The notes: a model not told the origin generated them from the sequence alone. A stretch of DNA of 64,000 nucleotides from Clostridia bacterium (GCA_028720145.1 JAQYLJ010000067.1:27890-91889), one strand, 5' to 3'. Positions 36,540 to 50,579 are shown, numbered from the stretch's first letter. Numbers and translations are program-made.

Positions 36540-37095
36540 CGTATTGTAGGACGGGGAAAAGCGACGCGGACACAGCGACATATCAAGGGCTCGCCCTTTG
36601 GGAGAGCTCCCGACGAAGTCGGGTGAGAGGGTGTAATGCCCCCAAAGCGACCGATAAGGTTTTCAATTTGTGCTCTTTCACCCTCTCCGTCACGCTTCGC
36701 GCGCCACCTCTCCCAAAGTGAGAGGCATAATTTCACTGCAACGCCTGTCCCGCGGTTTTTCAAAAGCCACACAGTATCGCATTGCAACTAAAAAGCGGCG
36801 GGAGCAAGCCCCCGCCCTACGATGAGGTCTTTACTTGCGTCCCTTGTGTAAAGGGAGGTGGCGCGCGCGAGCGTGACGGAGGGATTGTAATGTGGTCGCC
36901 CGACGACTCAAATGCGAGAAGTGTTGCACTCCGATTGATCATTCACTGCACAAAAGATTTTCCACGTTGTAGGGCGGGGGCTTGCTCCCGCCGCATTTTT
37001 TTGTAGGGCGATTCTCACTTCGTCGCAGACGAAAACTCACTTTGCGTCAGCAAGACTCACTGCGGCGCATAGCGCCACTTGCTCCCGCCGTCCCG
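36540..37095. repeat. REP/BIME-like cluster of GTAG-tailed palindromes plus a third word/mini-hairpin array
   Basis: A perfect 26-bp inverted repeat joins 36795-36820 (GCGGCGGGAGCAAGCCCCCGCCCTAC) and 36969-36994. A second imperfect IR joins 36680-36714 and 36853-36887. TGTAGG(G/A)CG occurs at about 36544, 36968 and 37002. The CTCAC word array lies at 37014-37080. Confidence 0.75.
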
Positions 37096-37193
37096 TCGGC
37101 AGAGCAAATTCCCCATGCTGCCCCCGCAACTGCTCCTTACGAGAGGCGGCTATCGCGGGGCGCGAAAGGGGAACGGAAACCCTTTCGGAAGAA

Positions 37194-37220
37194 TTAGCAC
37201 TCTCAAAGATAGAGTGCTAA
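37194..37220 (+). promoter_or_regulatory. CIRCE operator (HrcA binding site)
   Basis: TTAGCACTC-tcaaagata-GAGTGCTAA is a perfect match to the CIRCE consensus TTAGCACTC-N9-GAGTGCTAA. It lies 200 nt upstream of the hsp20 ATG. Confidence 0.85.
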
Positions 37221-37419
37221 CATTTACAATTTGTTCATATAAAACACACACACTTTGTGATTTCCGAAACTAGAATACAGGTGAAAAGAAAATGAAGGAG
37301 ATGATAGCAATGTGCTATGAAAACTTCTCCGACCGATGCGGTCGCCCCTCAGTCGGAGCCGACAAATAATGTGCGGGCGACAACAATCAATATTGGATTA
37401 AATTTTGGAGGTATCTATT

Positions 37420-37875
37420 ATGTTTGAAGTCATTTCTCGTAAGAATCATCCTGTTTCCGCGTATAATCCTTTCCGTGAGATGGAGGAGTTTGAAAGAAAC
37501 TTCTTCGGGAATCCCATCGGCGCCTTCTTCGGGTCGAAAGACCTCGCCGAGTTCAAGACCGATGTGACCGATGAGGGGGATTATTACCTCTTGGAAGCGG
37601 ATCTCCCCGGCTTTGATAAGAAAGATATCCATCTGGATATCAACGGCGATACGCTGACGGTATCCGCCGAGAGACATTCCAAGGTGGAGGACAAAGACAA
37701 GAAGGATAAGGTCTTGCGCGTGGAGCGTTCCTACGGTTCCTACACCCGCACCTTTGATCTCACCGGCATTGATGCAAATGACATTTCGGCGAAGTACGAA
37801 AACGGCGTTTTGACGCTTCGGTTGCCGAAAAAACTTGAAATCGTGCCGGAAAGCAGACGGCTCGAAATCGAGTGA
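37420..37875 (+). CDS. Hsp20/alpha-crystallin family small heat-shock protein
   Basis: ACD pattern: FKTDVTDEGDYYLLEADLPGFDKKDIHLDINGDTLTVSAE...RSYGSYTRTFDL...ISAKYENGVLTLRLPK. GGAGGT RBS 8 nt upstream, and its own hairpin/T-run terminator. Confidence 0.92.
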   Translation: MFEVISRKNHPVSAYNPFREMEEFERNFFGNPIGAFFGSKDLAEFKTDVTDEGDYYLLEADLPGFDKKDIHLDINGDTLTVSAERHSKVEDKDKKDKVLRVERSYGSYTRTFDLTGIDANDISAKYENGVLTLRLPKKLEIVPESRRLEIE

Positions 37876-37888
37876 TCTATTTCCATCG

Positions 37889-37918
37889 GGCGGCGAGCAA
37901 TCTCGCCGTCCTTTTTTT
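37889..37918 (+). terminator. intrinsic terminator after hsp20
   Basis: GGCGGCGAG-caat-CTCGCCGTC, followed by TTTTTTT. Confidence 0.75.
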
Positions 37919-37945
37919 CGCGGGAAAATCCCCAAAAGAGAAAAC

Positions 37946-37995
37946 AAAAAAGAGCAACCTTTCGCCCAAAGAGGAGGGGCAGGGTGCTCTTTTTC
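37946..37995 (-). terminator. probable terminator of the XRE regulator gene
   Basis: AAAAAGAGCA…TGCTCTTTTT 10-bp stem with a long structured loop. On the minus strand a T-run follows. Confidence 0.5.
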
Positions 37996-38023
37996 TATTG
38001 TCGGCTCGGTCAAAGGGGAGTGG

Positions 38024-38302
38024 CTACGACAACAGTTTTTTTAATTGCTCCAAACGGTCGATGGTCTCGTCAATCAGGGCGATTCGCTCGGCGGAGCCCG
38101 AGAGGTTCAGCGAGGTGCGTCCGACCAAATAATCAATCGTGACCCCGAAGAAGTCCGCGAGCCGAATCAACGCATCGCTGTCGGGATTGGTCTTTCCTGT
38201 CTCATAGTTGGAGATGGTGCGCTGGTCGATTCCCGTCGCCTTGGCAAGGTCGCTCTGCCGCAGGTCTTGGTCTTCCCGCAAGTCCCGAATCCGATTCTTC
38301 AT
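38024..38302 (-). CDS. XRE-family helix-turn-helix transcriptional regulator
   Basis: IRDLREDQDLRQSDLAKATGIDQRTISNYETGKTNPDSDALIRLADFFGVTIDYLVG is a Cro/C1 HTH_3 pattern. AAGGAG RBS. Divergent from the LRR gene. Confidence 0.88.
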   Translation of the reverse strand: MKNRIRDLREDQDLRQSDLAKATGIDQRTISNYETGKTNPDSDALIRLADFFGVTIDYLVGRTSLNLSGSAERIALIDETIDRLEQLKKLLS

Positions 38303-38359
38303 ACACGCTCTCCTTACCAAGTTTTTGACTATTATAGCAAATGAATAGAAAAACAATAC

Positions 38360-38412
38360 TTGGCAAGAAAGAATTTTATTATATAATTTGTATATACCAA
38401 TAATTTGGTATA
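38360..38412 (+). promoter_or_regulatory. promoter of the LRR lipoprotein gene plus a palindromic operator candidate
   Basis: TTGGCA-16-TATAAT (38360-38387), followed by the perfect palindrome TATACCAA-taat-TTGGTATA (38393-38412). It sits in the divergent region shared with the XRE regulator. Confidence 0.5.
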
Positions 38413-38434
38413 CAATTCAATCTTTTGGAGGATT

Positions 38435-39592
38435 ATGATGAAAAAGAGCATTTTCAGACTGACGACAATTCTATTACTGTGCGCGCTCTGTGCGTTACTT
38501 CTGGCCTTTTCCGGATGCGAGGACGAATCAACGAGTGATTCAAGAATACCAAGCACCTCGGACACATCCGGTACAACGAAAAAACCATCAAATAGCGGAA
38601 GCTCTAATACGGCCGACAAACCATCAAATAGCGGAAGTTCCGATACGACCGACAAACCATCGAACAGCGGAAGTTCCAATACGACCGAGAAACCATCGAA
38701 TGAAGAGTCATCCTTCTTCATCATGACGGGTCAGACATTGTCCGGGCTGACAGATGCGGGGAAAAAGCAAACTTCCATTGTAATACCAAGTAAAATCGAC
38801 GGAGTAACGGTTACGGCAATCGGAAGATCGGTATTTCAATACTGCTATTACTTAACCTCGGTTTCCATTCCGAGTAGTGTGACAAGTATTGGAAACTACG
38901 CGTTTTTTCATTGTGAATCACTAAAATCAATTGCAGTTCCAAGTAGCGTAAAGACGATTGGAGAAGACGCATTTTCTTTTTGTTCGGCAATGACATCAAT
39001 AACATTAGTGAACGGAGTCACCGGTATTGGTGAGAGAGCATTCTCTGGATGCAGCAGTCTGAAATCTGTTACCATTCCCGACAGCGTGACCAACATAGGG
39101 GGGAGTGCTTTTTATGGGTGTACCGCAATCAAGCAGGCAACAATGCCAACGATTGCGATTTCCAGTGTTCCGAAAGATTAATTAGAGACGGTGGTACTGA
39201 ATGGCGGGTCAAGCATCCCCAACTTCGCATTTCAATATTGCAGTACATTGAAATCAGTACAAATCCCCGGCACCGTGACGAGCATCGGCATGTTCGCGTT
39301 TGACTATTGCAAAGGATTGACCTCCGTGACCATTCCCGACAGCGTAACAGAAATCGGTGCACACGCGTTCTTTAATTGTTTCGGTCTCACAAGCGTGAAG
39401 ATCGGAAAAGGCGTGAAGAGTATTGGAGGTTACGCATTTAGCGGTTGTAGCAAATTGACATCCGTAACCTTTGCTAACCCGACTGGATGGAAAGCAGGGG
39501 GTACAGCAATGGATGTCAGTGATCCGGCAAAGGCGGCGGCGTATCTGGTTCCCGGATATCCGTATGGGAGCTATGAATGGACTCGCGGATAA
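38435..39592 (+). pseudogene. BspA-type leucine-rich-repeat (LRR_5-like) lipoprotein gene interrupted by an in-frame TAA at 39179-39181
   Basis: Signal peptide plus lipobox (LLCALCALLLAFSGC), then 3.6 tandem copies of KPSNSGSSNT(A/T)(D/E), then LRR units (SVTSIGNYAFFHCESLKSI...). ORFs 38405-39181 and 39191-39592 are in the same frame. The repeat pattern continues straight across the stop (…ISSVPKD*LETVVLNGGSSIPNFAFQYCSTLKSV…). Confidence 0.7.
38582..38713 (+). repeat. 36-bp coding tandem repeat (about 3.6 copies; KPSNSGSSNTAD units) in the LRR lipoprotein linker
   Basis: The units are 38582-38617, 38618-38653 and 38654-38689, plus a partial fourth. Confidence 0.85.
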
Positions 39593-39633
39593 ATCCACAG
39601 TATATTGGAGTATATAGAAAAGAGGAACAACAA

Positions 39634-40143
39634 ATGCAAAACAATCGGTTTTCGGTACAAATAGGAGACGACACTTTCGAGGTGCTCCATGACAGGGAGA
39701 ATGTAAAATTGCGGTATGAGCAGCCCTTTCATATGCTGAAAATCAGTTGTCGGTTCCTCGATGAAGTGCGGGACAATGTCGGTTTGGATTTCCACTATGA
39801 AATCCATTTCGGCGCACGGGACAGTTTCGTCCGACTCTGTTGTCATCTCCATCCGTATGAGTCATACAAGAGTCTCACGCCGAAACAAGTGAAAGATCAA
39901 CTGACAAGCGCGGGGAAGAGCCACCTGCTCGAGCTGCGTGAAACCCTCGCCGAGAAGTTCAAAACGGCATTCGCAGGTTACGATCATGTAATTTTTGCCG
40001 CAAAAACGAAGAATTATCTCGGGCTGATTCGCCGCCCCATTTGCTGTGACGATTTTGACAGAGCGGTCTGTGAGAGCAAGACCTTTCTCTGTGAGACATG
40101 GGAGAAGGCAAAGCCGATTATTCGGGCAGTGTGCTTGTCTTAA
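39634..40143 (+). CDS. hypothetical Cys-rich protein
   Basis: 169-aa ORF with an AAAGAGGA RBS 8 nt upstream, followed by a strong terminator. No recognisable motifs. Confidence 0.5.
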   Translation: MQNNRFSVQIGDDTFEVLHDRENVKLRYEQPFHMLKISCRFLDEVRDNVGLDFHYEIHFGARDSFVRLCCHLHPYESYKSLTPKQVKDQLTSAGKSHLLELRETLAEKFKTAFAGYDHVIFAAKTKNYLGLIRRPICCDDFDRAVCESKTFLCETWEKAKPIIRAVCLS

Positions 40144-40172
40144 CTCATTCTTTCTGCACTTTTTGAGAGCGC

Positions 40173-40219
40173 GGGGAGAGACTGCGAGGAACAGTCTCTC
40201 CCCCGTTTTCGTTCTTTCC
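40173..40219 (+). terminator. intrinsic terminator after the 39634-40143 gene
   Basis: GGGGAGAGACTG-cgaggaa-CAGTCTCTCCCC (12 bp perfect), followed by GTTTTCGTTCTTT. Confidence 0.8.
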
Positions 40220-40235
40220 CTTAGGCGCGCGAGGG

Positions 40236-40264
40236 TTGAAAACCCGCAGGGATTGTTGTAAAAT
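40236..40264 (+). promoter_or_regulatory. promoter of the HK-RR operon (about 185-nt leader)
   Basis: TTGAAA-17-TAAAAT. It is embedded in a 46-nt block repeated at 50658-50704. Confidence 0.55.
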
Positions 40265-40449
40265 GAAGAAAAGAAAGCGTCCGCACGCGCGGGGGAGAAC
40301 CGCGCGGGCACCACGCGGGAACCACGCGGGAGCGAGCAAAAACACGCTGCGGCGAGCAAAAACTCGCGGCATCAAGCGGAAACTGCGGGCGAACAAGCGG
40401 GCGCGACCGACCGTCGGGCGGTGCTTCGGGCAAAACGGGAGAGGGAAAC

Positions 40450-42237
40450 ATGGAAAAGAAATCTGTACTCGCGAAAGTATCGACGATTGCCGCCGTGGTG
40501 GTCGGGTGTACGTTCATCGCGTTCCTGATCTTCATGTTCGCGGCAAACAGCATCGAGATCTTCGCGTCCAGACCGAACGGGGGTTATCGGACGGTCGAGG
40601 ACTACACGCGCACGGATATCGAGACAGAGACCGCGCCCGCGGGGGTCGTGACCGAATACCGCTTCCCCGTCGGAGATACGGTCGACCCCGACGCGCATCT
40701 CGCGTTCTATACGACCCATCAGTACACCGAAGTCCTCATCGGCGGAGAGACGGTCTATCGCCTGACCGCCTCGGAGAACAGCATCACAAAAACGACTGGG
40801 AGCAACTGGGTGATGATCCCCCTGTCCGCCGCCGACGCGGGCAAAGAGGTGACCGTCCGCATCACGCCCGTCTATCGGGACTTTATCAGCAGAAAGACCG
40901 AGTTCCTGCTCGGGAGCGACCTCGCCATCTATGCCGCACGGCTCATGCACGACCTCCCCGAACTGATTTTGAGTATGCTCGCAGTCTTCATCGGCGCGGT
41001 CTTTGTCGTCATCGGGCTATGGAACCTCTTGCGGCGGAAACAGGGCAAGGCGCTCACCCTGCTCGGGATGTTCTCGGTCATGGTGGGACTGTGGCGTTTG
41101 ACCGATACGCGCTTCACGCCGTTCCTCTTTCCCGAACGCCCCGTCTTCGTCTTCTATTTCTCCATCGCGATGCTCATGCTCGGGATTGTCCCGCTGATGA
41201 AGTCGCTCGGGCATCGGTATCACAGTATGTCGAGCAAAATCGTCTTCAACACTTGTTGTATCGGCATTGTGGGGGTCAGTCTCCTACAACTGATTCTGCA
41301 AATCACGGGCGTGATGGATATTCGGGAAAACCTGTTCCTCACGCATATCATGGTCGTCATCGGCGCGATTGCCATCCTCGTCAACTCGATTTATTATAAT
41401 TATAAGTGGAAGAATCGCGGGGACGACGGGAACCGCATCATCAGTTTTCTGCCGTTTGTCTGCGTCGTGGGTGCCATCGCCGATTTGGCGGCGTTCTATA
41501 TCAAAGGGAACTCGGCGGGGCTGGTCTTCACTCTGGCGGCATTCGTCCTCTATACCGTCATCTCGGGGATTCGGATGCTGCTCGATTACGGGGAGCGCGG
41601 CAGACGGCTCGCCGAACAGGAGAAAGAACTTCTAAAAAGCCGTATCGCCATCATGCTCTCGCAAATCAAGCCGCATTTTCTCTACAATTCGCTCAGCTCC
41701 ATAGGCGAGCTCTGTATGGTCGACCCCGCACAGGCGCGGGACGCGCTGACCGACTTCTCCGCCTATCTGCGGAGCAACATGGATTTCATCGACACGAAGG
41801 AATGCGTGCATTTCTCGAATGAACTCAAACACATCGAGACCTATCTGAAACTCGAAAAGATGCGGTTCGGAGACCGTCTGCAAGTCGTGTACGACATACG
41901 GGAGGACAATTTCTTTCTGCCGCCTCTGACGGTCCAACCCCTGGTGGAGAACGCGGTCAAGCACGGCATCTGCGCCAAGCCCGAGGGCGGGACCATCACG
42001 CTCGCCACGCGGCGCGAGGGGGAGCAAATCGTCATCACGGTCTCGGACGACGGTGCCGGATTCGACGAGCGGGAAACCGACGGGAAAGAGGAACGCTCGC
42101 ATATCGGTCTCGCGAATATCAAGAAGCGTTTGGAACTCATGATGGGTGCGACCTTGACCGTCCACAGCGAAAAAGGGGTCGGGACGGTCGTCACGGTGAT
42201 ACTGAACACAAATACTGCGGGGGAGACGGAAGCATGA
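40450..42237 (+). CDS. sensor histidine kinase, LytS/His_kinase(PF06580)-type core with N-terminal extracellular domain + 7TM (7TMR-DISM-like) sensor
   Basis: TM1, then a roughly 150-aa extracytoplasmic segment, then seven further hydrophobic helices. The H-box is QIKPHFLYNSLSSI and the GHKL ATPase shows PPLTVQPLVENAVKHG and DDGAGF...GIGLANIKKRL. Confidence 0.85.
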   Translation: MEKKSVLAKVSTIAAVVVGCTFIAFLIFMFAANSIEIFASRPNGGYRTVEDYTRTDIETETAPAGVVTEYRFPVGDTVDPDAHLAFYTTHQYTEVLIGGETVYRLTASENSITKTTGSNWVMIPLSAADAGKEVTVRITPVYRDFISRKTEFLLGSDLAIYAARLMHDLPELILSMLAVFIGAVFVVIGLWNLLRRKQGKALTLLGMFSVMVGLWRLTDTRFTPFLFPERPVFVFYFSIAMLMLGIVPLMKSLGHRYHSMSSKIVFNTCCIGIVGVSLLQLILQITGVMDIRENLFLTHIMVVIGAIAILVNSIYYNYKWKNRGDDGNRIISFLPFVCVVGAIADLAAFYIKGNSAGLVFTLAAFVLYTVISGIRMLLDYGERGRRLAEQEKELLKSRIAIMLSQIKPHFLYNSLSSIGELCMVDPAQARDALTDFSAYLRSNMDFIDTKECVHFSNELKHIETYLKLEKMRFGDRLQVVYDIREDNFFLPPLTVQPLVENAVKHGICAKPEGGTITLATRREGEQIVITVSDDGAGFDERETDGKEERSHIGLANIKKRLELMMGATLTVHSEKGVGTVVTVILNTNTAGETEA

Positions 42238-43049
42238 ACATATTGGCGCTGGACGACGAGAATCTCGCGCTCGCGGGACTGATGCGGGAGATCGGGACTC
42301 TGTTCCCCGACGCGCACACGGTCGGCTGTCAGAACGCGGAGGAAGCCATGCGGTACGCGAAGCAACTGACCGAGGCGGGCGAGACGCTCGACTATGCCTT
42401 CTGCGATATTGAACTGCCGGGGATCAGCGGACTGGAAGTCGCGAAAATGCTGAAAACCTATTTCCCGAAACTCAAACTGTTTTTCTGCACCGCATACAGT
42501 CAGTTCGCCATCAACGCCTTCGGAATGAAAGCGAAAGGATATCTGTTAAAGCCGATTCGGGCGAAAGACATCGCCGAGGTGCTCGACGAAATGGTCTCCG
42601 ACTGGAAGAGCGAGCCGAGCACGCTGAAAAAAGATATTCGGGTACAGACCTTCGGGGACTTCGAGGTGTTTCTTAACGGGAAACCCCTGCATTTCGAGCG
42701 CGCCAAAGCCAAGGAACTCCTCGCCTACCTCGTCGATAGAAAGGGTGCGGGGGTCACGACCGAGCGGATCGCCGCGGTGTTGTTCTCTGACGAGAACTAC
42801 GGGAAAAAACTCAAAAATACCGTGACGAGGACCGTCTCTTTCCTGAAAGCCGATCTCATCGCGGCGGGGATCGGGGATATTCTCGTCAAGTCGTGGAACC
42901 AGTTGGCGATTGACACGAGCAAAATCAAGTGCGACGCTTACGACTACGAGCGGGGGGATGTCGCGGCGGTCAACGCCTATCGGGGCGAATATATGTTCGG
43001 TTATGAGTGGGCGGAGTTCTCGGTCGGTCGGTTTGACAAGAATCGGTAA
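42234..43049 (+). CDS. response regulator: REC + winged-helix/BTAD-like (SARP/SAPR-type) output domain
   Basis: REC motifs (ILALDDE; FCDIELPGISG; GYLLKP). The output domain starts VQTFGDFEVFLNGKPLHFERAKAKELLAYLVDRKG, the SARP/OmpR-type wHTH pattern. ATGA overlap with the kinase gene. Confidence 0.8.
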   Translation: MNILALDDENLALAGLMREIGTLFPDAHTVGCQNAEEAMRYAKQLTEAGETLDYAFCDIELPGISGLEVAKMLKTYFPKLKLFFCTAYSQFAINAFGMKAKGYLLKPIRAKDIAEVLDEMVSDWKSEPSTLKKDIRVQTFGDFEVFLNGKPLHFERAKAKELLAYLVDRKGAGVTTERIAAVLFSDENYGKKLKNTVTRTVSFLKADLIAAGIGDILVKSWNQLAIDTSKIKCDAYDYERGDVAAVNAYRGEYMFGYEWAEFSVGRFDKNR

Positions 43050-43066
43050 TAATGTTAAAAAATCAT

Positions 43067-43097
43067 AAAAAGCAGGGGCGTTATTCCCCTGCTTTTT
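43067..43097 (+). terminator. intrinsic terminator after the response-regulator gene
   Basis: AAAAAGCAGGGG-cgttatt-CCCCTGCTTTTT. Confidence 0.8.
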
Positions 43098-43138
43098 ATA
43101 TATTTAGACGAAAAAAATACAAAAAATGTTGAAAAATG

Positions 43139-43170
43139 TCGTCCTTTCGTCGTCCTTTGTGATGGATAAT
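43139..43170 (+). promoter_or_regulatory. activator-dependent-type promoter of the giant surface-protein gene: two TCGTCCT heptamers + -10 GATAAT, no -35
   Basis: TCGTCCT (43139-43145) and TCGTCCT (43150-43156) repeat with an 11-nt period. An 8-nt gap (ttgtgatg) then precedes GATAAT (43165-43170). No TTGACA-like hexamer is present. Confidence 0.5.
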
Positions 43171-43231
43171 GAGAGGGAATTCTTATCAATTCATGTAATT
43201 CTTATCAATTATCTATTCGGAGGAATGAATC

Positions 43232-46200
43232 ATGATTGCAAAAACAAACGGAAAATGGAAAGGCATCCTCGGCATGACGCTCATGCTCGCCTGCGTGCTA
43301 TGCCTGACCTTGGTATTGGTGTTTCTGGTACCCGGGACGAAGGCGAGCGCGGCTGCGCCTGTCCGACCGGATGGCAGTTTCACCAATATCAGCAATAGTT
43401 ACGACGCTACAAACTATATGAGTAATGTGTACGGCGGCGAGTATAATTACCTATTGACCGAAGACGGTATTCAGATGAATGCCAATATGGTCATAGCAGA
43501 CCACGCTGTCGTCAACCTGTGCCTGAATGGGCATGATTTGAATTTCGCGTCGGGATATAACATTCAAATCATCGACGGCGTTCTGAATATCTTTGACAGC
43601 GGCAGCGTCAAATCGTTATACGGCGTAGATACCGGAGAGGGTACGGGTGAGGGCACCGAGTTGCTTCCCGTGTTTATCAACGGGTATAACGGTACGCTCA
43701 ATGTCGTCGGCAGCACGGTAGATTCGCTGGGCCCCGTTACGGTCGGCATCTACGGCAGCGTCGGCGTATATGGCGGCGGTAAAATTATCAACAGTTCGCT
43801 CGGCGAGTCCGAAAGCCCCACGGTTAGCAAAGGGATTGCAATCAGTCTTTCGTCCGGCGCCGGCAATCTGACTCTTTCGGACGGGGCAACAATCGGCTAT
43901 TTGTGCGGCGGCGGCACGATCAATGCAAACGGCTATGGGGGCACGGTCAATATTCTGCCGCACGGCGTCTCCACTTTCAAAAATATTTCCGCAGAGAATA
44001 TCAATATGATAGACTCCTCCGGCAATTATTTTATGGAAACGAGCGGCGACGACATTGTGATTACAGCCAATGTAACCTATACGGTCGTTCTGAAAAATGC
44101 CAAACTTGACGAGAGATTCTACGAGACTTCTTTGCTCACGGCCGAGGGCTCGGGCGTTGTGATCACCGAAAACGAATATAACGGCTATAATATCGTACAG
44201 TCGTTTAAGGCAGGCACCGGCACATTCAAGGAATTGATCGTAACGGTAAAAGACGGATACCTTCTGCCCGCGTACTTTGAAGAACAGGCAGGGATTGAAG
44301 ACCCGTATGTATTGGCGTCCGGCTATCAGGGTTTGAAGTTGACCCGCAGCGGGAACTCTTTGTATGTCCGTTGCTCGAATTGGACCGGCGATACGGATAT
44401 AACGGTCAGCGTAGCCGGAACCGAACCTGCCGAAGGCGATGTCGTGTGCGACGGTATCAAGTTTACCACGCCCATCAATCAGTCAGGGGCATGCACCCAG
44501 GGCAGTGGATATGCGGGCGATTGGGGTTCTTCTTATACGGGTCCGGACGGTTCGTTTTCGATACTCAACATGTGCGTCACCTCGACAATGAGTCTCTATC
44601 TGGAAGAAGATGTCGTGATGTTTACGCACGGAAGTATCGGTTCGTCCGGCGATTATACGGCAGAGTATCCTCCCGAGAACATCACGGTAGACCTGTATCT
44701 CAACGGGCATACGCTCACACTGTACGGTTCGGGTGGTGACTCGGCAGGTATCACGGTCTATCCCAATGCGTCATTCAATATTTATGACAGCGCAGCCGGA
44801 ACCGGCAAGATCGTTTTGGAATCGCAAGACGATTCGCAGTATGATTCCGGATTGCTTGATAATCTTTGCGTGCTGGCTGTAAAGGGCGGTACGGTCAATC
44901 TGTACGGCGGTACGCTTTCGGGTTATTTTGAAGCGGTACGATTGGAGCCCTCTGCCAAATATACCCAGACCACCTCGCAGGACGAACTGGGGAATACGAT
45001 TACCACCAAAAAATACAGCACGACCACATTCAGAATGTTCGGCGGAGAACTCAACATTAAGTACACGAAGTATGCAGTCAATATCGTAGCGGCGCTGTAT
45101 GCATCGCAGGATATCACCTATGAGGAAAATGTTATACACAATTTCGCCGCGCACGACATTAAGATTTACGGCGACAGCAAACTGACCGGCGTGATTTCGA
45201 CCACGCAAGATACCGACCTCAACTTCGACGCATACGGTTTCACCGGCGATGCGATCAGCATTCGGGCAAACAAGGCAAGAGAAGGCGAAGTGCTTTGCCG
45301 CCATACGACTGCGAATAAAATCAATTTCGTAAACAAGGGCTTCACCGCCATTGACGACGAAGTGAATGAGGGGAATGTCATCGTGAAGCCCGCGATGGAA
45401 ATCAGTCTCATCCCGGACGAGCACAGCGTGTTCTCCAACGGCTCGGAAAGCGGTATCACCTCGTTCGGCGCTTTGCAGGGGAAGACGCTCGCAGAGGCGG
45501 GACTCCAACTCGTAGCCGACGCCGGATATGAGGCGAAAGAGTACATTTATCAGGCGATCATCGTCGGCGTTGCCGCAGGCGACGACTTCACGGTTCTCCT
45601 GCTCAGCGACGGCTCACTCTGGGCTTGCGGCGGGAACGAATTCGGTCAACTCGGCAACAAGTCTTTCGAGGGTTCCTCCGCTTTCATCCCCATGCAGACC
45701 GAAAGCGGCGCGATTAAGGGCGTCTCGGCAGTCTATGCCAAAGGTCAGATGGTAGTTGCGCGCATGAACGATCAATCTACGATGGCTTGCGGCGACAACA
45801 CCTACGGACAACTCGGCGTGAACAGCACCGAAACGAAGGTCAACTACTTTATGCCTATGGTAGATGCCGAAGGAAAAACGCTTTCCAATGTTGTAAATGT
45901 TTACATGGGTGGCAACCACACCTTCGTACAGAATTTCAACTCGGATACGAGGATATATGATCTCTACGCCTGCGGTAAAAACGACCACGGACAATTAGGT
46001 ATCGGCTCGACGGAAGACAAAAACATTTTAATCAAGGTCACCGTGAGCGAAGGTATTACCGATTATTTCAGTGTCGAGTGCGGCGTGGATTTCACCGTCT
46101 TCAATACATATTGGAACCACAGTTTTATTACCTTTATGGCGGGTAACGGTGCTTTCCTCAGTACCCTGAACGGACATATCTATTCGAGCGGGGATTGGAA

Positions 46201-49200
46201 CTATACCGACATCAATTTGCAGATTACCTCGCAAGACTATACCACACCAACCCAGTTATGTGATGATCCCTACCAGCAAGTACGATTCCGTGTTGGCGAC
46301 GGGTTTATACTGGCGTTTGTGTTTGACTCAATGAATGAGTATAAACTTTTGGCGATGGGCGACAACTCCAAGGGGCAGTGCGGTAACTACGGAGGCGGCA
46401 CGATCAATTCGTTCTCGCCTATGAAAGACGCAAACAATAATGATGTTACGGGCGTTCGCGACATCTATATCGGCAAAGATTTCGTCGTCGTCTTCAAGTT
46501 CGACGGCTCGGTATGGGTGTGCGGTAACAACGAAAACGGACAACTCGGTATCAATAGTTCCGAACCCATTGTCTATGTGCTCACGCAGGTCGCGCAAAAC
46601 CTGGACAACTACTCGAAGTGGGCGGTCGGCGGCAGCCACCTCGTCGCGCTCAAAAACGACGGATCGTTCTATGTTACGGGTAGCAACGCGGCAGGTCAGC
46701 TCGGTTTCGATTCTTCTGTCGGAAAGAAGATGGTTCTCACCGAAAGAAAACTCACAGAAGCGCAACTCACCGCCACTTCGCTCGCAGACATTACCGCAGA
46801 CTTCAACATGGATTTGAGGGTGGTAACCGGACTGCTTGAATTCAACATCAACATGAACGCAAACACCGGCGATCCTGCGGACGACAAGGTAGCAAAAACC
46901 CAACTCCATAAACTCTATGTGAAGGATTTGCCCGACCCCGAATGGGACGAGTTCCACACCTTTGTGGGCTGGTTCACGGCGGCAGAGGGTGGCGAAGCGG
47001 TCACCGACCGGACCCTGACCGAAGACATCGAGATCTTCGCGCATTGGACTCTGAACTATAAGATTACTCTTGACGCGCAGGGCGGTTCGACTTCTTCCGC
47101 ATATCTCGTCACGAAGGACGGGAAACTCACGACCCTTCCCAACGCGAAATACGATGCTTCGCATCTGTTCTTCGCCTGGTACACCGAGAAGAACGGCGGC
47201 GGGGAAGAGGTCACGCTCGATACCGTGTTCACCGCGGACACCACGATTTATGCAAGTTACATCACCGTGGGCAAGACGATTGACCGTATCGAAAAGACGA
47301 CCGAAGGACTTGTCGATACCTATACCATCTATTATACCGACGACACGACTTACTCCTTTACCGTCACCAACGGTTCGAGCGGTTCGGGCAGCGGCTCCAG
47401 CGAAGCGCCTTCTATCGGCGAGAACGGCAACTGGTGGATTGGCGAAACCGATACGGGTGTGAGCGCGAGCGGTACGGACGGTGCGGACGGCGCAGACGGG
47501 AAGACCCCGCAACTCCGCATCAATTCCGAGACGAATATGTGGGAAGTCTCCTACAACGAGGGTTCCACTTGGACCTCGCTCGGCGTGAAAGCGACGGGTG
47601 CCGCAGGCGCAGATGGTGCTGACGGCAACAGCATCGAAAAGGTCGAAAAGATCAGTACCGAAGGGCTGGTCGATACATACCGCATCACCTTCACCGACGG
47701 CTCGACCTTCGACTTCACGGTGACGAACGGTGCTGACGGCACGGACGGCACAAACGGCAAGAAACTGGAAATGCAGATCAATGCCGAGACCAACGAGTGG
47801 GAGTACCGCTATGAGGGCGATACCGAATGGACTTCCACCGGCGTGAAAGCGACCGGCGCGAACGGCTCCGACGGTGCAGACGGGAAGACCCCGCAACTCA
47901 AAATCGGCGAGGACAACTACTGGTATGTATCCTATGACGACGGTGCGACCTGGACGAGCCTGAATGTCAAGGCGACAGGCGAAAAGGGTGCGGACGGCAC
48001 GGACGGCGTGACCCCGCAGCTCCGTATCAATTCTTCTACGAACTATTGGGAAGTGTCGTACGATAACGGCACGAGCTGGAACTCTCTCGGCGTGAAGGCG
48101 ACGGGTGAGGGTGCGGGCTCGGGCTCAGGCACCGACGGCATCACTCCCAAACTCCGTGTGAACGCGGAAACCAATGAGTGGGAAGTCTCCTACGACAACG
48201 GCACGACCTGGGAATCCCTCGGCGTGAAAGCGACCGGCTCTGACGGCGCAGACGGTGCCGATGGTGCAGACGGCAAGAAGATTATCATTCGCATTAACCC
48301 GACCACGGGCGAGTGGGAGTATCAGTACGAGGGCGACACCGAATGGACATCTCTCGGTGTGAAAGCCACCGGCGAAAAGGGTGAACAAGGCGAAAAGGGT
48401 GAAGACGGCAGAGGCATCGTCAAGATTGAAAAGACGAGCACAAGCGGTCTCATCGACACTTACACCATCACCTACACCGATGGCACGACTTCGACCTTCA
48501 CTGTGACGAACGGTCAAGGTGGTGCGAACGGCGCAGATGGCGCGGACGGCGAAGACGGTATCACCCCGCACATTGGCGCGAACGGCAACTGGTTCATCGG
48601 TGAAACCGATACCGGTGTCAAGGCGGTCGGTACCAATGGTACCAACGGCGCAGACGGTGCCGATGGTGCAGACGGCAAGAAGATTATCATTCGCATTAAC
48701 CCGACCACGGGCGAGTGGGAGTATCAGTACGAGGGCAACAGCGAATGGACCTCTCTCGGCGTGAAAGCCACCGGCGAAAAGGGTGAACAAGGCGAAAAGG
48801 GTGAACAGGGTGAAAAAGGCGAACAGGGTGAAAAAGGTGAGCAAGGAGAAAAGGGTGATACCGGTGAAAAAGGCGACGCCGGCAGAGGCATCGTTAAGAT
48901 CGAAAAGACCGGCACTCAGGGTCTGATTGACACCTACACCATCACCTACACCGACGGCACGACCACGACCTTCACCGTGACGAACGGTTCCGACGGCGGC
49001 AGCGGCAGTAACGGTGCCTACGGTGGCAACCCCTTCACGGGTTCCAACGGCAACTGGTGGATCGGCTCGACCGATACGGGCGTGAGCGCGGGCGGCGGTG
49101 TCGATGGAGCGACTCCGCAGTTCCGCGTCAATGCCGATACAAAGGAATGGGAAGTGTCGAACGATAACGGCACGACCTGGCTCTCTCTCGGCGTGAAAGT

Positions 49201-49378
49201 CATTGAACAACAGGTCGGGGAGAATGGTGAAAACACCACGCTCGCGACGACCGTCGGCTGTTCCGCGGCACTCGTGGCAGTGGTCATCGCCATCGTCATC
49301 ACCATTCTCGCCATTCGCGATAAGAAACGGATGCAGAAAGTTCTGGACTCCATGAAGAACGGCGAGGATAAAGAATGA
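43232..49378 (+). CDS. giant (2048 aa) mosaic cell-surface protein: signal peptide, beta-helix-like region, RCC1 repeats, Listeria-Bacteroides (Flg_new-like) repeats, collagen-like G-X-Y linkers alternating with three short module types, C-terminal TM anchor
   Basis: GGAGG RBS and signal peptide (LMLACVLCLTLVLVFLV…ASA). Six or seven RCC1 signatures are present (GGNEFGQLG, GDNTYGQLG, GKNDHGQLG, GDNSKGQCG, GNNENGQLG, GSNAAGQLG) at about 45560-46720. Two HxFxGW(F/Y)T…W units lie at about 46955-47260. Repeated modules span 47279-49200. The TM is AALVAVVIAIVITILAI, followed by a basic tail. Confidence 0.9.
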   Translation: MIAKTNGKWKGILGMTLMLACVLCLTLVLVFLVPGTKASAAAPVRPDGSFTNISNSYDATNYMSNVYGGEYNYLLTEDGIQMNANMVIADHAVVNLCLNGHDLNFASGYNIQIIDGVLNIFDSGSVKSLYGVDTGEGTGEGTELLPVFINGYNGTLNVVGSTVDSLGPVTVGIYGSVGVYGGGKIINSSLGESESPTVSKGIAISLSSGAGNLTLSDGATIGYLCGGGTINANGYGGTVNILPHGVSTFKNISAENINMIDSSGNYFMETSGDDIVITANVTYTVVLKNAKLDERFYETSLLTAEGSGVVITENEYNGYNIVQSFKAGTGTFKELIVTVKDGYLLPAYFEEQAGIEDPYVLASGYQGLKLTRSGNSLYVRCSNWTGDTDITVSVAGTEPAEGDVVCDGIKFTTPINQSGACTQGSGYAGDWGSSYTGPDGSFSILNMCVTSTMSLYLEEDVVMFTHGSIGSSGDYTAEYPPENITVDLYLNGHTLTLYGSGGDSAGITVYPNASFNIYDSAAGTGKIVLESQDDSQYDSGLLDNLCVLAVKGGTVNLYGGTLSGYFEAVRLEPSAKYTQTTSQDELGNTITTKKYSTTTFRMFGGELNIKYTKYAVNIVAALYASQDITYEENVIHNFAAHDIKIYGDSKLTGVISTTQDTDLNFDAYGFTGDAISIRANKAREGEVLCRHTTANKINFVNKGFTAIDDEVNEGNVIVKPAMEISLIPDEHSVFSNGSESGITSFGALQGKTLAEAGLQLVADAGYEAKEYIYQAIIVGVAAGDDFTVLLLSDGSLWACGGNEFGQLGNKSFEGSSAFIPMQTESGAIKGVSAVYAKGQMVVARMNDQSTMACGDNTYGQLGVNSTETKVNYFMPMVDAEGKTLSNVVNVYMGGNHTFVQNFNSDTRIYDLYACGKNDHGQLGIGSTEDKNILIKVTVSEGITDYFSVECGVDFTVFNTYWNHSFITFMAGNGAFLSTLNGHIYSSGDWNYTDINLQITSQDYTTPTQLCDDPYQQVRFRVGDGFILAFVFDSMNEYKLLAMGDNSKGQCGNYGGGTINSFSPMKDANNNDVTGVRDIYIGKDFVVVFKFDGSVWVCGNNENGQLGINSSEPIVYVLTQVAQNLDNYSKWAVGGSHLVALKNDGSFYVTGSNAAGQLGFDSSVGKKMVLTERKLTEAQLTATSLADITADFNMDLRVVTGLLEFNINMNANTGDPADDKVAKTQLHKLYVKDLPDPEWDEFHTFVGWFTAAEGGEAVTDRTLTEDIEIFAHWTLNYKITLDAQGGSTSSAYLVTKDGKLTTLPNAKYDASHLFFAWYTEKNGGGEEVTLDTVFTADTTIYASYITVGKTIDRIEKTTEGLVDTYTIYYTDDTTYSFTVTNGSSGSGSGSSEAPSIGENGNWWIGETDTGVSASGTDGADGADGKTPQLRINSETNMWEVSYNEGSTWTSLGVKATGAAGADGADGNSIEKVEKISTEGLVDTYRITFTDGSTFDFTVTNGADGTDGTNGKKLEMQINAETNEWEYRYEGDTEWTSTGVKATGANGSDGADGKTPQLKIGEDNYWYVSYDDGATWTSLNVKATGEKGADGTDGVTPQLRINSSTNYWEVSYDNGTSWNSLGVKATGEGAGSGSGTDGITPKLRVNAETNEWEVSYDNGTTWESLGVKATGSDGADGADGADGKKIIIRINPTTGEWEYQYEGDTEWTSLGVKATGEKGEQGEKGEDGRGIVKIEKTSTSGLIDTYTITYTDGTTSTFTVTNGQGGANGADGADGEDGITPHIGANGNWFIGETDTGVKAVGTNGTNGADGADGADGKKIIIRINPTTGEWEYQYEGNSEWTSLGVKATGEKGEQGEKGEQGEKGEQGEKGEQGEKGDTGEKGDAGRGIVKIEKTGTQGLIDTYTITYTDGTTTTFTVTNGSDGGSGSNGAYGGNPFTGSNGNWWIGSTDTGVSAGGGVDGATPQFRVNADTKEWEVSNDNGTTWLSLGVKVIEQQVGENGENTTLATTVGCSAALVAVVIAIVITILAIRDKKRMQKVLDSMKNGEDKE
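48773..48889 (+). repeat. collagen-like G-X-Y tract (13 triplets, mostly GEK/GEQ; 18-bp tandem unit) inside the giant gene
   Basis: GEKGEQGEKGEQGEKGEQGEKGEQGEKGDTGEKGDAGRG. The paralogous position at about 48371-48415 has only 5 triplets. Confidence 0.9.
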
Positions 49379-50526
49379 AAGTACTGACAGTATTGCTGTT
49401 CATCGGCTTGGCGGTGCTGTGCGGCTCATTCGGGTATCTGCTCTATCTGACCTTTCACAAAACCGACGACAAACCGAAAAGCGGGCATGTCGCTACGGAA
49501 AAACAAAAGGATAGTGTTTCGCAAAAGACTTCGGGAACGGTCGTTCCCGAAGTCGCCCCCGCCGCGGGCAAAAAGCCCCCTGTGGTACTGCCGCCCGTCG
49601 GGGACGAGAGCGAAAACGGGGTGAGACAATGGGACGCGGCGAAAAATCAATACCTGTTTTTCCTCTATAACCGCAGTTTCACCGCGCGGCTGATTCAGGC
49701 GGACGACGAGACGAAATCCTACTATTCTGTTCTAAAGAACGAGATTCTCTCCTACGGGAAAATCGGGAGCCGCATCAGTTGGAAACACGAACTGTTCCGT
49801 GTGAGCAGAGAGCCGGTCATCCGCATGAAATTCCGCGGCAAGACCTTGTGCCTGTATTTTGCGTTGACCCCCGCGGACTACGCGCTCACCAAATACAAGG
49901 TCGAGGATGCGTCCGATGCGGCGATGAACGCCGAACTGCCCTGTCTCTATCGCATCTCCAACGACCGCAGATGCGCTTACGCAAAGGATCTCATCGCCGC
50001 GGTCATGGCGAAGTACGGGCAGACAAAGATGAAGACCCTCGACACCGATTATGTCGCTCATTATCCGTATGAGGCGAACGAACCGCTGATTGCCCGCGGG
50101 CTCATCAAGCTGGTGTCGCAATCGGACGCGCAAAGCGGCTCGGAATCCGTGCCGCCCGTTTCGGAACCGCAGGCAGACGAAGAAGAACTCTCGGCTGCGA
50201 TGGCGTCGCCCGACCCGAATCTCGCAGATATCGACTATGTGGATGAGGGAGATACGGACTTTGTGCCGACCGCGGACACGCCCGGCGTGGAGGTCATCGG
50301 CATCGTGTGGCCGGAAAAGAGAAAGAACAACAAGATTTATCGCTACGACCCGAACGGAGAGACCATCTCCGCAGGCGATATCGTACTTGTACCCTCTTTT
50401 GATGCGGTACACGGGAAAGAGGTCGTCCGAAAGGTCGCGGTGGCGAAGGGTAATTACCGAGAAGGCCCCGAAAAATTGCCAAAGACCCTGAAAAAACTCA
50501 TCAGCGTCGTGACTCGTAAGAGTTGA
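49375..50526 (+). CDS. hypothetical membrane-anchored protein, translationally coupled to the giant surface-protein gene
   Basis: ATGA start/stop overlap and an N-terminal TM (VLTVLLFIGLAVLCGSFGYLLYL). No catalytic motif is recognised. A terminator follows at 50540-50579. Confidence 0.7.
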   Translation: MKVLTVLLFIGLAVLCGSFGYLLYLTFHKTDDKPKSGHVATEKQKDSVSQKTSGTVVPEVAPAAGKKPPVVLPPVGDESENGVRQWDAAKNQYLFFLYNRSFTARLIQADDETKSYYSVLKNEILSYGKIGSRISWKHELFRVSREPVIRMKFRGKTLCLYFALTPADYALTKYKVEDASDAAMNAELPCLYRISNDRRCAYAKDLIAAVMAKYGQTKMKTLDTDYVAHYPYEANEPLIARGLIKLVSQSDAQSGSESVPPVSEPQADEEELSAAMASPDPNLADIDYVDEGDTDFVPTADTPGVEVIGIVWPEKRKNNKIYRYDPNGETISAGDIVLVPSFDAVHGKEVVRKVAVAKGNYREGPEKLPKTLKKLISVVTRKS

Positions 50527-50539
50527 GACGCGCACGGCG

Positions 50540-50579
50540 GCGGGCAGACGCGAGTCTGCCCGCTGTCTTTTGCCTTTTT
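50540..50579 (+). terminator. intrinsic terminator ending the giant-protein operon
   Basis: GCGGGCAGAC-gcga-GTCTGCCCGC, followed by TGTCTTTTGCCTTTTT. Confidence 0.8.

Follow-up and report, generated by a model that had tools for sequence, protein, structure and literature searches.

A two-component system and putative operator adjoining the gene for a stalked, membrane-anchored giant protein in a Clostridia bacterium

Four open reading frames (ORFs) running in one direction within positions 40236-50526 of a 64,000-nt stretch of Clostridia bacterium DNA (GCA_028720145.1, JAQYLJ010000067.1:27890-91889; hereafter the window) encode a histidine kinase (HK), a response regulator (RR), a giant surface protein and a fourth protein (gene 4). 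We consider it probable that this locus is a two-component switch wired to the adjacent surface-protein gene. It is a lineage-specific version of a familiar arrangement, in which a two-component system (TCS) regulates a stalked, adhesin-like protein anchored by a transmembrane (TM) helix, here with a head that is almost an orphan. Of the results, the most useful are a sequence-defined putative operator for this RR family and the swapping of cargo genes across related gut Clostridia. Coordinates are given as positions in the whole window (Table 1); L-numbers denote comparison loci or contigs and P-numbers homologous proteins.

The link between the TCS and the giant gene is indicated by the promoter that lies between them. 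This promoter has no recognisable -35 hexamer, and in its position stand two direct repeats, GTCGTCCTTTC and GTCGTCCTTTG, a pattern that occurs once in the window against 0.06 matches expected. A scan of genome contigs with the RR returned 20 loci, none of them from the genome of the window itself. In 11 of 11 distinct loci with an orthologous RR, the repeats are found between the RR stop codon and the next gene with invariant GTCC cores 11 bp apart, and a fixed spacing of 5 nt separates them from a TAnAAT-type hexamer whatever cargo follows; the repeat sequence of the family is GTyGTCCwTT. Tandem repeats spaced by one turn in place of the -35 box are a textbook hallmark of promoters activated by PhoB (at pho boxes) and by SARPs such as ActII-ORF4, DnrI and AfsR. 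The giant-gene promoter resembles these in having two tandem repeats with an 11-bp (one helical turn) period just 5' of the -10 box, no -35 box, and an adjoining gene for an OmpR/SARP-type regulator. It differs in its repeat sequence and in the 5 nt that separate the repeats from the -10 box, both specific to this RR family, and binding is here a prediction. From the conservation of the repeats and the analogy with PhoB and SARPs, we infer that phosphorylated RR binds at 43138-43159 and activates the giant promoter. In a blind motif scan of metagenome contigs, 6 of the 120 matches listed fall within a few kb of a PF06580 kinase, and four of these six also show an RR homologue (E 1e-54 to 1e-94). 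The cargo at the TCS-linked matches comprises a membrane phosphoesterase, a permease and a peptidase.

The order HK-RR-giant gene recurs in three other lineages, a result that answers in part the proposal, in an earlier note made from this DNA, that gene neighbourhoods be searched for co-occurrence of all four genes. A Candidatus Coproplasma genome (L008/L009) encodes a full-length giant orthologue of 2370 amino acids with 56% identity end to end, L030 encodes one of 2049 amino acids (P0243) with the same architecture and 39% identity over the head, and another Coproplasma metagenome-assembled genome (MAG; L155/L156) holds an N-terminal fragment on a contig that ends after 227 head residues. 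Gene 4 does not share this distribution, as the giant gene is followed by a LytTR-like gene in L008 and by an EF-P gene in L030, both lineages in which the downstream region is visible. The nearest relatives of the window are MAGs labelled Eubacteriales, Candidatus Coproplasma and Borkfalkiaceae, and a 99% identical strain is present in a Logan assembly (L001). The DNA probably comes from an uncultured gut member of Clostridia related to these MAGs.

By cargo, the 11 loci divide into four lineages with giant orthologues, four loci with TasA/SipW-like secreted proteins, two with GGDEF/EAL enzymes and one with a secreted protein of another kind. In L006/L012, L010, L011 and L151/L152, HK and RR precede small secreted proteins with a TasA/SipW-like signal ('VGYAALTD...'); in L006/L012 and L151/L152, for which the sequence extends further downstream, a multi-TM signal-peptidase fusion comes next. 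The HK and RR genes of L004/L005 and L153/L154 precede GGDEF and EAL enzymes, and then TasA-like and SipW-like genes. We entertain, tentatively, the broader idea that this TCS family is a portable 'sensor plus promoter' cassette with its own pho-box-like operator and swapped envelope cargo, by which one signal would remodel the surface in a lineage-specific manner, with the C-terminal domain of gene 4, found in membrane proteins from three such clusters, acting as a hitherto unrecognised cytoplasmic accessory factor for the displayed structures.

It is also conceivable that the TCS and the giant gene are neighbours without any regulatory link, an independently expressed accessory gene having landed beside a housekeeping TCS. 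Such an origin would account for the terminator and separate promoter between RR and giant gene, for the lower GC content at third codon positions (GC3) of the giant gene (0.66) relative to HK (0.77) and RR (0.75), and for the orthologous TCS pairs that adjoin other genes in other genomes. We nevertheless judge this unlikely, since the order HK-RR-giant gene is kept in four lineages (the window included) despite different outer flanks, and since the 11-bp repeat promoter accompanies the RR gene in every one of the 11 loci, always facing the next gene.

Some further features of these promoters and cargo clusters were observed. Distant members of the RR family keep an operator of the form GTTGTCCTTTTGTTGTCCTTT, followed by a -10 box (L033 949-969 (+) and 7561-7581 (-), L104 3799, L088 1400), facing non-surface cargo, namely a membrane metallophosphoesterase, an amino-acid permease with an acetamidase, and an M13-like peptidase. 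The GTTGTCCTTTTGTTGTCCTTT operator can also stand upstream of the TCS operon itself, which suggests autoregulation. Within the predicted 5' untranslated region of the giant gene, the two copies of AATTCTTATCAATT are 19 bp apart and have no equivalent in the orthologous loci L008 or L030; the pair might act as a further operator restricted to this lineage, or as an RNA element. The small secreted proteins of L006 (3088-9231), L010 (3071-3625), L011 (~1785 onward) and L151 (3140-8683) share the signal ...CLGVGYAALTD(T/S)L..., and their clusters include a 371-residue multi-TM protein with an S26 (SipW-like) signal peptidase fused to it, as well as two paralogues of ~350 residues with the same signal. 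In these Christensenellales-like MAGs the clusters resemble an operon for fibres of the TasA/SipW type, as yet uncharacterised.

The HK contains the PF06580 His_kinase domain (E 6.5e-21) and HATPase_c (E 7.7e-14), both above the gathering cut-offs, and matches PDB entry 6swj (E 3.5e-20), in agreement with the LytS-type kinase named in the earlier note. A seven-TM sensor had also been proposed. Hydropathy indicates an N-terminal TM helix, an external segment of ~140 residues and six clear TM helices with a weaker seventh candidate, and the charged loops are compatible with a topology of an external domain plus seven TM helices, but residues 1-390 match no Pfam sensor model at E up to 1, including 5TM-5TMR_LYT and GAF. 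The hydropathy topology also fits that of 7TMR-DISM receptors, while the 7TMR-DISMED2 and 7TMR-DISM_7TM models give no match (E up to 1). Orthologues of the sensor region are found in L004, L006, L008, L010, L151, L153 and L155 (E 1e-115 to 1e-145).

The RR has a REC domain (PF00072, E 5e-14) that scores best against BtsR and LytR models, and it matches OmpR-family structures (1p2f, 1kgs, 7lz9) over its full length, with its C-terminal half aligning to their winged helices. No LytTR domain was found in Pfam. The REC and winged-helix parts of the architecture first suggested for this protein were thus recovered, but its BTAD domain was not: PF03704 has no match at E up to 1, and the winged helix is followed by a stub of only about 45-55 residues that by eye resembles the first BTAD helices. 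Homologues with 54-76% identity are numerous in Clostridia, many of them (54-60% identity) with a precomputed PF00486 assignment, and JGI names them 'two-component SAPR family response regulator', a label that we take to mean COG3947. In its predicted domains, the RR has the REC domain and OmpR/SARP-type winged helix of COG3947/SARP-type regulators without a complete BTAD domain; its REC domain and BTAD stub set it apart from classical SARPs. From their domain content, we assign the pair as a TCS of a LytS-family kinase and a SARP/OmpR-type regulator, in essence as the earlier note had labelled it. It resembles LytS/LytR and BtsS/BtsR (YehU/YehT) in the PF06580 and HATPase_c core of the kinase and in the REC domain, and differs from them in having a winged-helix rather than LytTR output, and an external segment with a seven-TM block rather than the 5TM-LYT sensor. 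No characterised counterpart emerged from a literature search on COG3947, on REC regulators of SARP type in Firmicutes and on DUF4988.

ORF calls and hairpin folding energies confirmed that the four co-directional genes are enclosed by terminators, as had been claimed; neither boundary hairpin was equalled by any shuffled sequence. Start and stop codons overlap as ATGA at both the HK/RR and the giant gene/gene 4 junctions. A third strong hairpin, at 43064-43100 and absent from the earlier note, separates RR from the giant gene (-21.7 kcal/mol, z -6.2, 0 of 200 shuffles as good), and a comparable hairpin is found 3' of the RR gene in L008. It probably ends the HK-RR transcript, and because of it the segment probably consists of two transcription units, HK-RR and giant gene plus gene 4. 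The first of these would start from the promoter-like site at 40236, which is not a gene start; an ORF at 40236-41399 was rejected as a gene, being an Arg-rich nonsense translation in an alternative frame overlapping the HK gene. The HK leader (40270-40449, +) is ~180 nt long and GC-rich, with a 20-nt tandem repeat at 40320-40359 and several CGCGGG hairpins, and its overall fold is weak (z -2.7). Rfam yielded no match at gathering threshold in the whole window and, at 40100-43300, only sub-threshold chance matches on the terminator hairpin. A riboswitch or c-di-GMP leader 5' of HK or the giant gene was rejected on the basis of this empty scan.

In the mechanism that we favour, HK would be co-transcribed with RR, the transcript probably stopping at 43064-43100. 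Phosphorylated RR would bind the two 11-bp repeats as a tandem dimer and recruit RNA polymerase, in the manner of PhoB at pho boxes and SARPs at heptad repeats, and this recruitment would activate the giant gene together with gene 4, its translationally coupled neighbour. The giant protein would be exported via Sec and held by its C-terminal TM helix in a type I topology, with a stalk of ~650 residues holding the Listeria-Bacteroides (Flg_new) repeats, the RCC1 propeller and the 720-residue head away from the cell, a layout expected of an adhesin or ligand-binding fibril. Gene 4 would supply a membrane-tethered, probably cytoplasm-facing, YjbR-like domain. Several points weigh against this scheme. 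Every step in it is drawn from sequence, RR binding being argued from conservation and the PhoB/SARP analogy, and the adhesin role from domain types and topology. The winged helix of this RR is weak in Pfam (Trans_reg_C, E 0.038). Most of the 120 metagenome motif matches listed are unrelated, and the 21-mer alone is not diagnostic. Read-through at 43064-43100 could also put all four genes on one transcript, and the head, which has no recognisable fold, may have an enzymatic role.

Table 1. Positions of features of the locus within the 64,000-nt window
Feature	Position	Strand	Details
Intrinsic-terminator hairpin, left boundary	40173-40203	+	Ends upstream unit; 12-bp stem, then T-rich tail; -33.8 kcal/mol, z -4.8
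Sigma-70-like promoter candidate for HK-RR	40236-40264	+	TTGAAA-17-TAAAAT, 10/12 consensus positions
HK gene	40450-42237	+	595 amino acids
RR gene	42234-43049	+	271 amino acids
Palindromic terminator-like hairpin, directly 3' of RR stop	43064-43100	not assigned	A-run on one side, T-run on the other; terminator scan
Two 11-bp direct repeats GTCGTCCTTTC GTCGTCCTTTG, putative RR operator	43138-43159	+	Occupy -35 region of giant-gene promoter
-10 box of giant-gene promoter, GATAAT	43165-43170	+	Gap of exactly 5 nt to repeat 2
Two exact copies of AATTCTTATCAATT	43178-43191 and 43197-43210	+	Predicted 5' untranslated region of giant gene; 2 matches against 0.00 expected
Giant-protein gene	43232-49378	+	2048 amino acids
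Signal peptide, residues 1-40	43232-43351	+	Hydrophobic core 15-33, then ...KASA/AAP; sequence and hydropathy; kept in orthologues
Head, residues 41-760	43352-45511	+	Lineage-restricted, all-beta, 720 amino acids
RCC1-type beta-propeller, residues ~770-1165	45539-46726	+	WD40_RLD E 5e-52, RCC1 2e-31, RCC1_2 1e-22
Two Listeria-Bacteroides (Flg_new) repeats, residues ~1235-1345	46934-47266	+	PF09479 E 5.2e-12, 2 stretches
Stalk, residues ~1350-2000 (~650 residues)	47279-49231	+	DUF4988 E 2e-26, 5 stretches; Collagen 1.5e-6; CFSR 0.003
C-terminal TM anchor, residues ~2006-2028	49247-49315	+	Hydropathy 2.99
Gene 4	49375-50526	+	383 amino acids
Intrinsic-terminator hairpin, right boundary	50536-50567	+	14-bp stem, 10 GC pairs, T-rich tail; -32.4 kcal/mol, z -4.2

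Gene 4 had been described as an ATGA-coupled membrane protein; the overlap and an N-terminal TM helix are present, but the helix is the only one and the bulk of the protein is probably cytoplasmic. The predicted layout comprises the TM helix (1-28), a disordered linker, a domain at 83-250, an acidic linker and a small C-terminal beta domain at ~305-375 ('IYRYDPNGE..GDIVLVP'), and the protein has no match in Pfam (E up to 1), NCBIfam or PHROGs. The probable single-TM topology with a cytoplasmic bulk is suggested by the basic residues that follow the TM helix in homologues and by family fusions to uL15-like, YjbR-like and McrC-like domains. An AlphaFold2 model built with a 55-sequence alignment reaches a predicted local distance difference test score (pLDDT) above 95 over residues 83-250, for which the best Foldseek matches in the PDB are YdhG-like, YjbR and DUF1801 structures (probability 0.96-1.0, TM-score 0.52-0.62, E ~0.02). 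This points to a YjbR/YdhG-like alpha/beta domain as a fold-level lead short of family membership: the predicted fold is shared with MmcQ/YjbR and YdhG (DUF1801), whereas there is no sequence-level match, and the domain in gene 4 is TM-tethered, with long linkers and an extra C-terminal beta domain. The central domain of ~165 residues defines a family of 185 hits that is widespread in Clostridia, whose members often have two copies of the domain or a uL15-like PF00828, and one of which is named MmcQ/YjbR by NCBI.

Among these homologues, P0002, P0006, P0035 and others represent a large Clostridia family with an N-terminal TM helix, long acidic or Pro-rich linkers and one or two YjbR-like domains. 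A C-terminal uL15-like PF00828 is frequent in this family, and some members are annotated by NCBI as 'uL15 family ribosomal protein', a name that is probably misleading. In L004 (16715-20709) and L153 (10143-12595), a 525-residue protein, which we take to be McrB-like AAA, is followed by a DUF2357 (PF09823) protein, presumably McrC-like. In L004, the C-terminus of the latter holds two copies of the central domain of gene 4, a fusion that hints that this domain may bind nucleic acid.

A reading in which all four genes form one dedicated surface system, with gene 4 as an obligatory membrane partner (for anchoring, export or signalling via the tail of the giant protein), would fit the translational coupling implied by the ATGA overlap and the conserved cytoplasmic tail of the giant protein. 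It would also fit the C-terminal domain of gene 4, a module of ~70 residues (window 50287-50499) with the pattern '(I/F)YRY(D/S)PNGE..GD(I/V)VLVP...' and a pLDDT of only ~60, which recurs in membrane proteins of TasA-like cargo clusters at orthologous TCS loci (L151 4868-6481, L006 6599-7003). There the module follows a long (PE)n linker and ends a two-TM protein on its cytoplasmic side; the recurrence keeps open a functional link of gene 4 to the cargo. As an obligatory partner, however, gene 4 would be expected to follow the giant gene elsewhere, and its absence in L008 and L030 makes the reading improbable, as do the breadth of the gene 4 family, with its frequent uL15-like fusions, and the unrelated genes surrounding its nearest homologue from another species (56% identity). 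The conserved four-gene module of the earlier note does not survive these two findings on context. By the same comparisons, gene 4 is best regarded as a lineage-specific passenger or accessory addition to the operon rather than a conserved partner.

The giant protein itself conformed largely to its earlier description, as its RCC1 region, Listeria-Bacteroides repeats and collagen-like linked modules were all matched in Pfam, with Collagen (PF01391) just above threshold (28.3 bits against a cut-off of 27.2). Membership of the propeller in the seven-bladed RCC1 type is indicated by PF25390 (177.8 bits against a cut-off of 150), with further matches to PF00415 and PF13540. Modules of ~20-35 residues and of three kinds make up the stalk: 'GLVDTYTItYTDG..FTVTNG', 'TPQLRIN..WEVSYD.G.TW.SLGVKATG' (the DUF4988 core) and 'GNWWIG.TDTGV'. 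They are linked by Gly-X-Y tracts of 4-13 triplets. The DUF4988 (PF16378) module is present about nine times; the longest Gly-X-Y run has 13 triplets (residues 1848-1886) and the others 4-6, and a tandem GAAAAGGGT array is found in the stalk region at 48776-48876. The number of stalk modules varies among orthologues of 2048, 2370 and 2049 amino acids. Hydropathy and sequence also upheld a C-terminal TM anchor in place of LPXTG: no LPXTG motif is present, the sequence before the TM helix being ...ENGENTTLATTVGC..., and the helix is followed by a basic tail of ~20 residues (RDKKRMQ...) kept in P0242 and P0243. A Pfam scan of the protein found no SLH or cell-wall-binding domains.

The head consists of two homologous modules of ~200-250 residues (about 75-275 and 465-715), each starting ...CLNGH.L..., around an insert of ~190 residues; the internal duplication is supported by hhalign (probability 91.6%, E 8e-7). 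It has no match in Pfam (E up to 1), PHROGs or the PDB, where searching with a profile of the head alignment yielded nothing beyond a chance match (E 0.52). An exhaustive HMMER search of 1.84e9 representatives returned four hits, comprising a same-species fragment, two full-length orthologues and one further fragment, which gives the head only three relatives in 1.8 billion protein clusters, while a word-indexed homologue search found only a 97% identical fragment, and metagenome contigs scanned with the head alignment contained no relative. A single-sequence AlphaFold2 model of residues 41-760 was all strand and unusable (pLDDT 36). The beta-helix-like N-terminal region of the earlier note accordingly found no backing in Pfam, PHROGs or the PDB, although a beta-helix is a plausible shape for the head, which is a candidate for a new binding domain.

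That an all-beta head has repeated G-x-hydrophobic strands, fitting a parallel beta-helix, and that the best NCBIfam match of the giant protein is the BT3328 hyaluronate-lyase family could indicate a surface-tethered enzyme, such as a polysaccharide lyase or hydrolase whose catalytic head is a beta-helix. This seems rather doubtful, as the BT3328 match is confined to the DUF4988 part of the model (positions 71-173 of 840), with 74.7 bits against a cut-off of 1100, and neither the Pfam models for beta-helices, lyases and glycoside hydrolases (E up to 1) nor any PDB sequence match the head. With the DUF4988 proteins of Bacteroides (N-terminal region of the BT3328 family), the giant protein shares the module 'TPQ.rI...W.vSyD.G.TW..LG' (PF16378, E 2e-26), but it lacks the lyase domain and uses the module about nine times as a stalk, in a TM-anchored protein of Gram-positive type. 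An exosporium, S-layer or phage-derived fibre of BclA or tail-fibre type is very improbable, since the Gly-X-Y tracts alone drive the weak matches to Scl adhesins and collagen-like tail-fibre PHROGs, the neighbours (PFOR, Hsp20, U32 peptidase, Maf, Toprim) are housekeeping genes with no prophage or spore-coat genes among them, SLH and cell-wall-binding domains were not found, and the Sec signal and C-terminal TM helix argue for display on the vegetative membrane.

We therefore return to a stalked, adhesin-like protein, for which partial parallels exist. Like Scl1/Scl2 of Streptococcus and BclA of Bacillus and Clostridioides, the giant protein would hold a globular, variable head out on Gly-X-Y tracts, but here these are short linkers between beta modules rather than one long triple helix, LPXTG or exosporium targeting is absent, and the Scl models score only 22.6 against a cut-off of 400 and 19.7 against a cut-off of 325. 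Similarly, the PDB matches of the stalk are to collagen tracts only and its PHROG matches to collagen-like tail fibres, both driven by the Gly-X-Y tract. Surface proteins of honeybee-gut Bifidobacterium also combine RCC1 propellers with Flg_new repeats and are strain- or lineage-variable (Ellegaard et al., 2015; PMC4449606); they are LPXTG-anchored, with two to four propellers, a Flg_new domain upstream of each, and tandem gene families (PMC4449606). The giant protein is like these in combining RCC1 and Flg_new in a lineage-variable protein of a gut bacterium. Unlike them, it has a single propeller with Flg_new after it, possesses an orphan head and a stalk of collagen/DUF4988 type, is anchored by a TM helix and has a TCS of its own. 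No characterised protein with the full architecture was found in a literature search, which together with the nearly orphan head lends some substance to the suggestion of an undescribed system; that wording is nonetheless an overstatement, because every part is of a known kind and the same TCS family drives other cargo elsewhere.

The segment was also said to be more AT-rich than its flanks, and hence of accessory origin. Its GC content is modestly lower (54.5%, against 57.2% for the window and ~59.5% for the flanks) and the GC3 of the giant gene and gene 4 (0.69) is low, but HK and RR have native GC3 values like those of housekeeping genes, and the AT-richest stretch (37000-40235, 47.9% GC) is outside the segment. 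There is weak support for an accessory origin of the giant gene and, because of this housekeeping-like GC3, none for that of the TCS. Upstream neighbours encode Mfd, Dus, PFOR and Hsp20, and downstream neighbours a U32 peptidase, Maf, an HhH-GPD glycosylase and a Toprim/RNase M5-like protein. Prophage or mobile-island origin was rejected on account of these housekeeping flanks and the native GC3 of the TCS.

Christensenellales-type Clostridia are common in animal and human guts, yet mostly uncultured, and their surface biology is almost unknown. In this setting the locus offers a testable circuit with a defined putative operator, regulator and target, and the giant protein may plausibly serve as an adhesin or colonisation factor. 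The conserved regulator-type site before its gene suggests that the protein is displayed only on signal, and the combination of one sensor and operator with swapped cargo suggests that one signal governs a switch of surface or biofilm state across the clade. For the large uncharacterised COG3947 regulator family, the operator offers a means of predicting direct targets from sequence. No general principle is changed, as signal-regulated adhesins and PhoB/SARP-type promoters are already well known.

Directly upstream of the locus, in the AT-richest part of the window (44-50% GC), lies a BspA-type LRR_5 lipoprotein gene (38405-39592, +; signal ...LLAFSGC) with an in-frame stop at 39179-39181, reflecting either a pseudogene or a sequencing error. 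A 188-residue ORF (39577-40143, +) without Pfam match is found between this gene and the terminator at 40173. LRR_5 genes are likewise found beside the orthologous TCS-giant loci of L008 and L155, lying upstream in L155/L156 as in the window, and surface-protein genes therefore tend to cluster at these loci.

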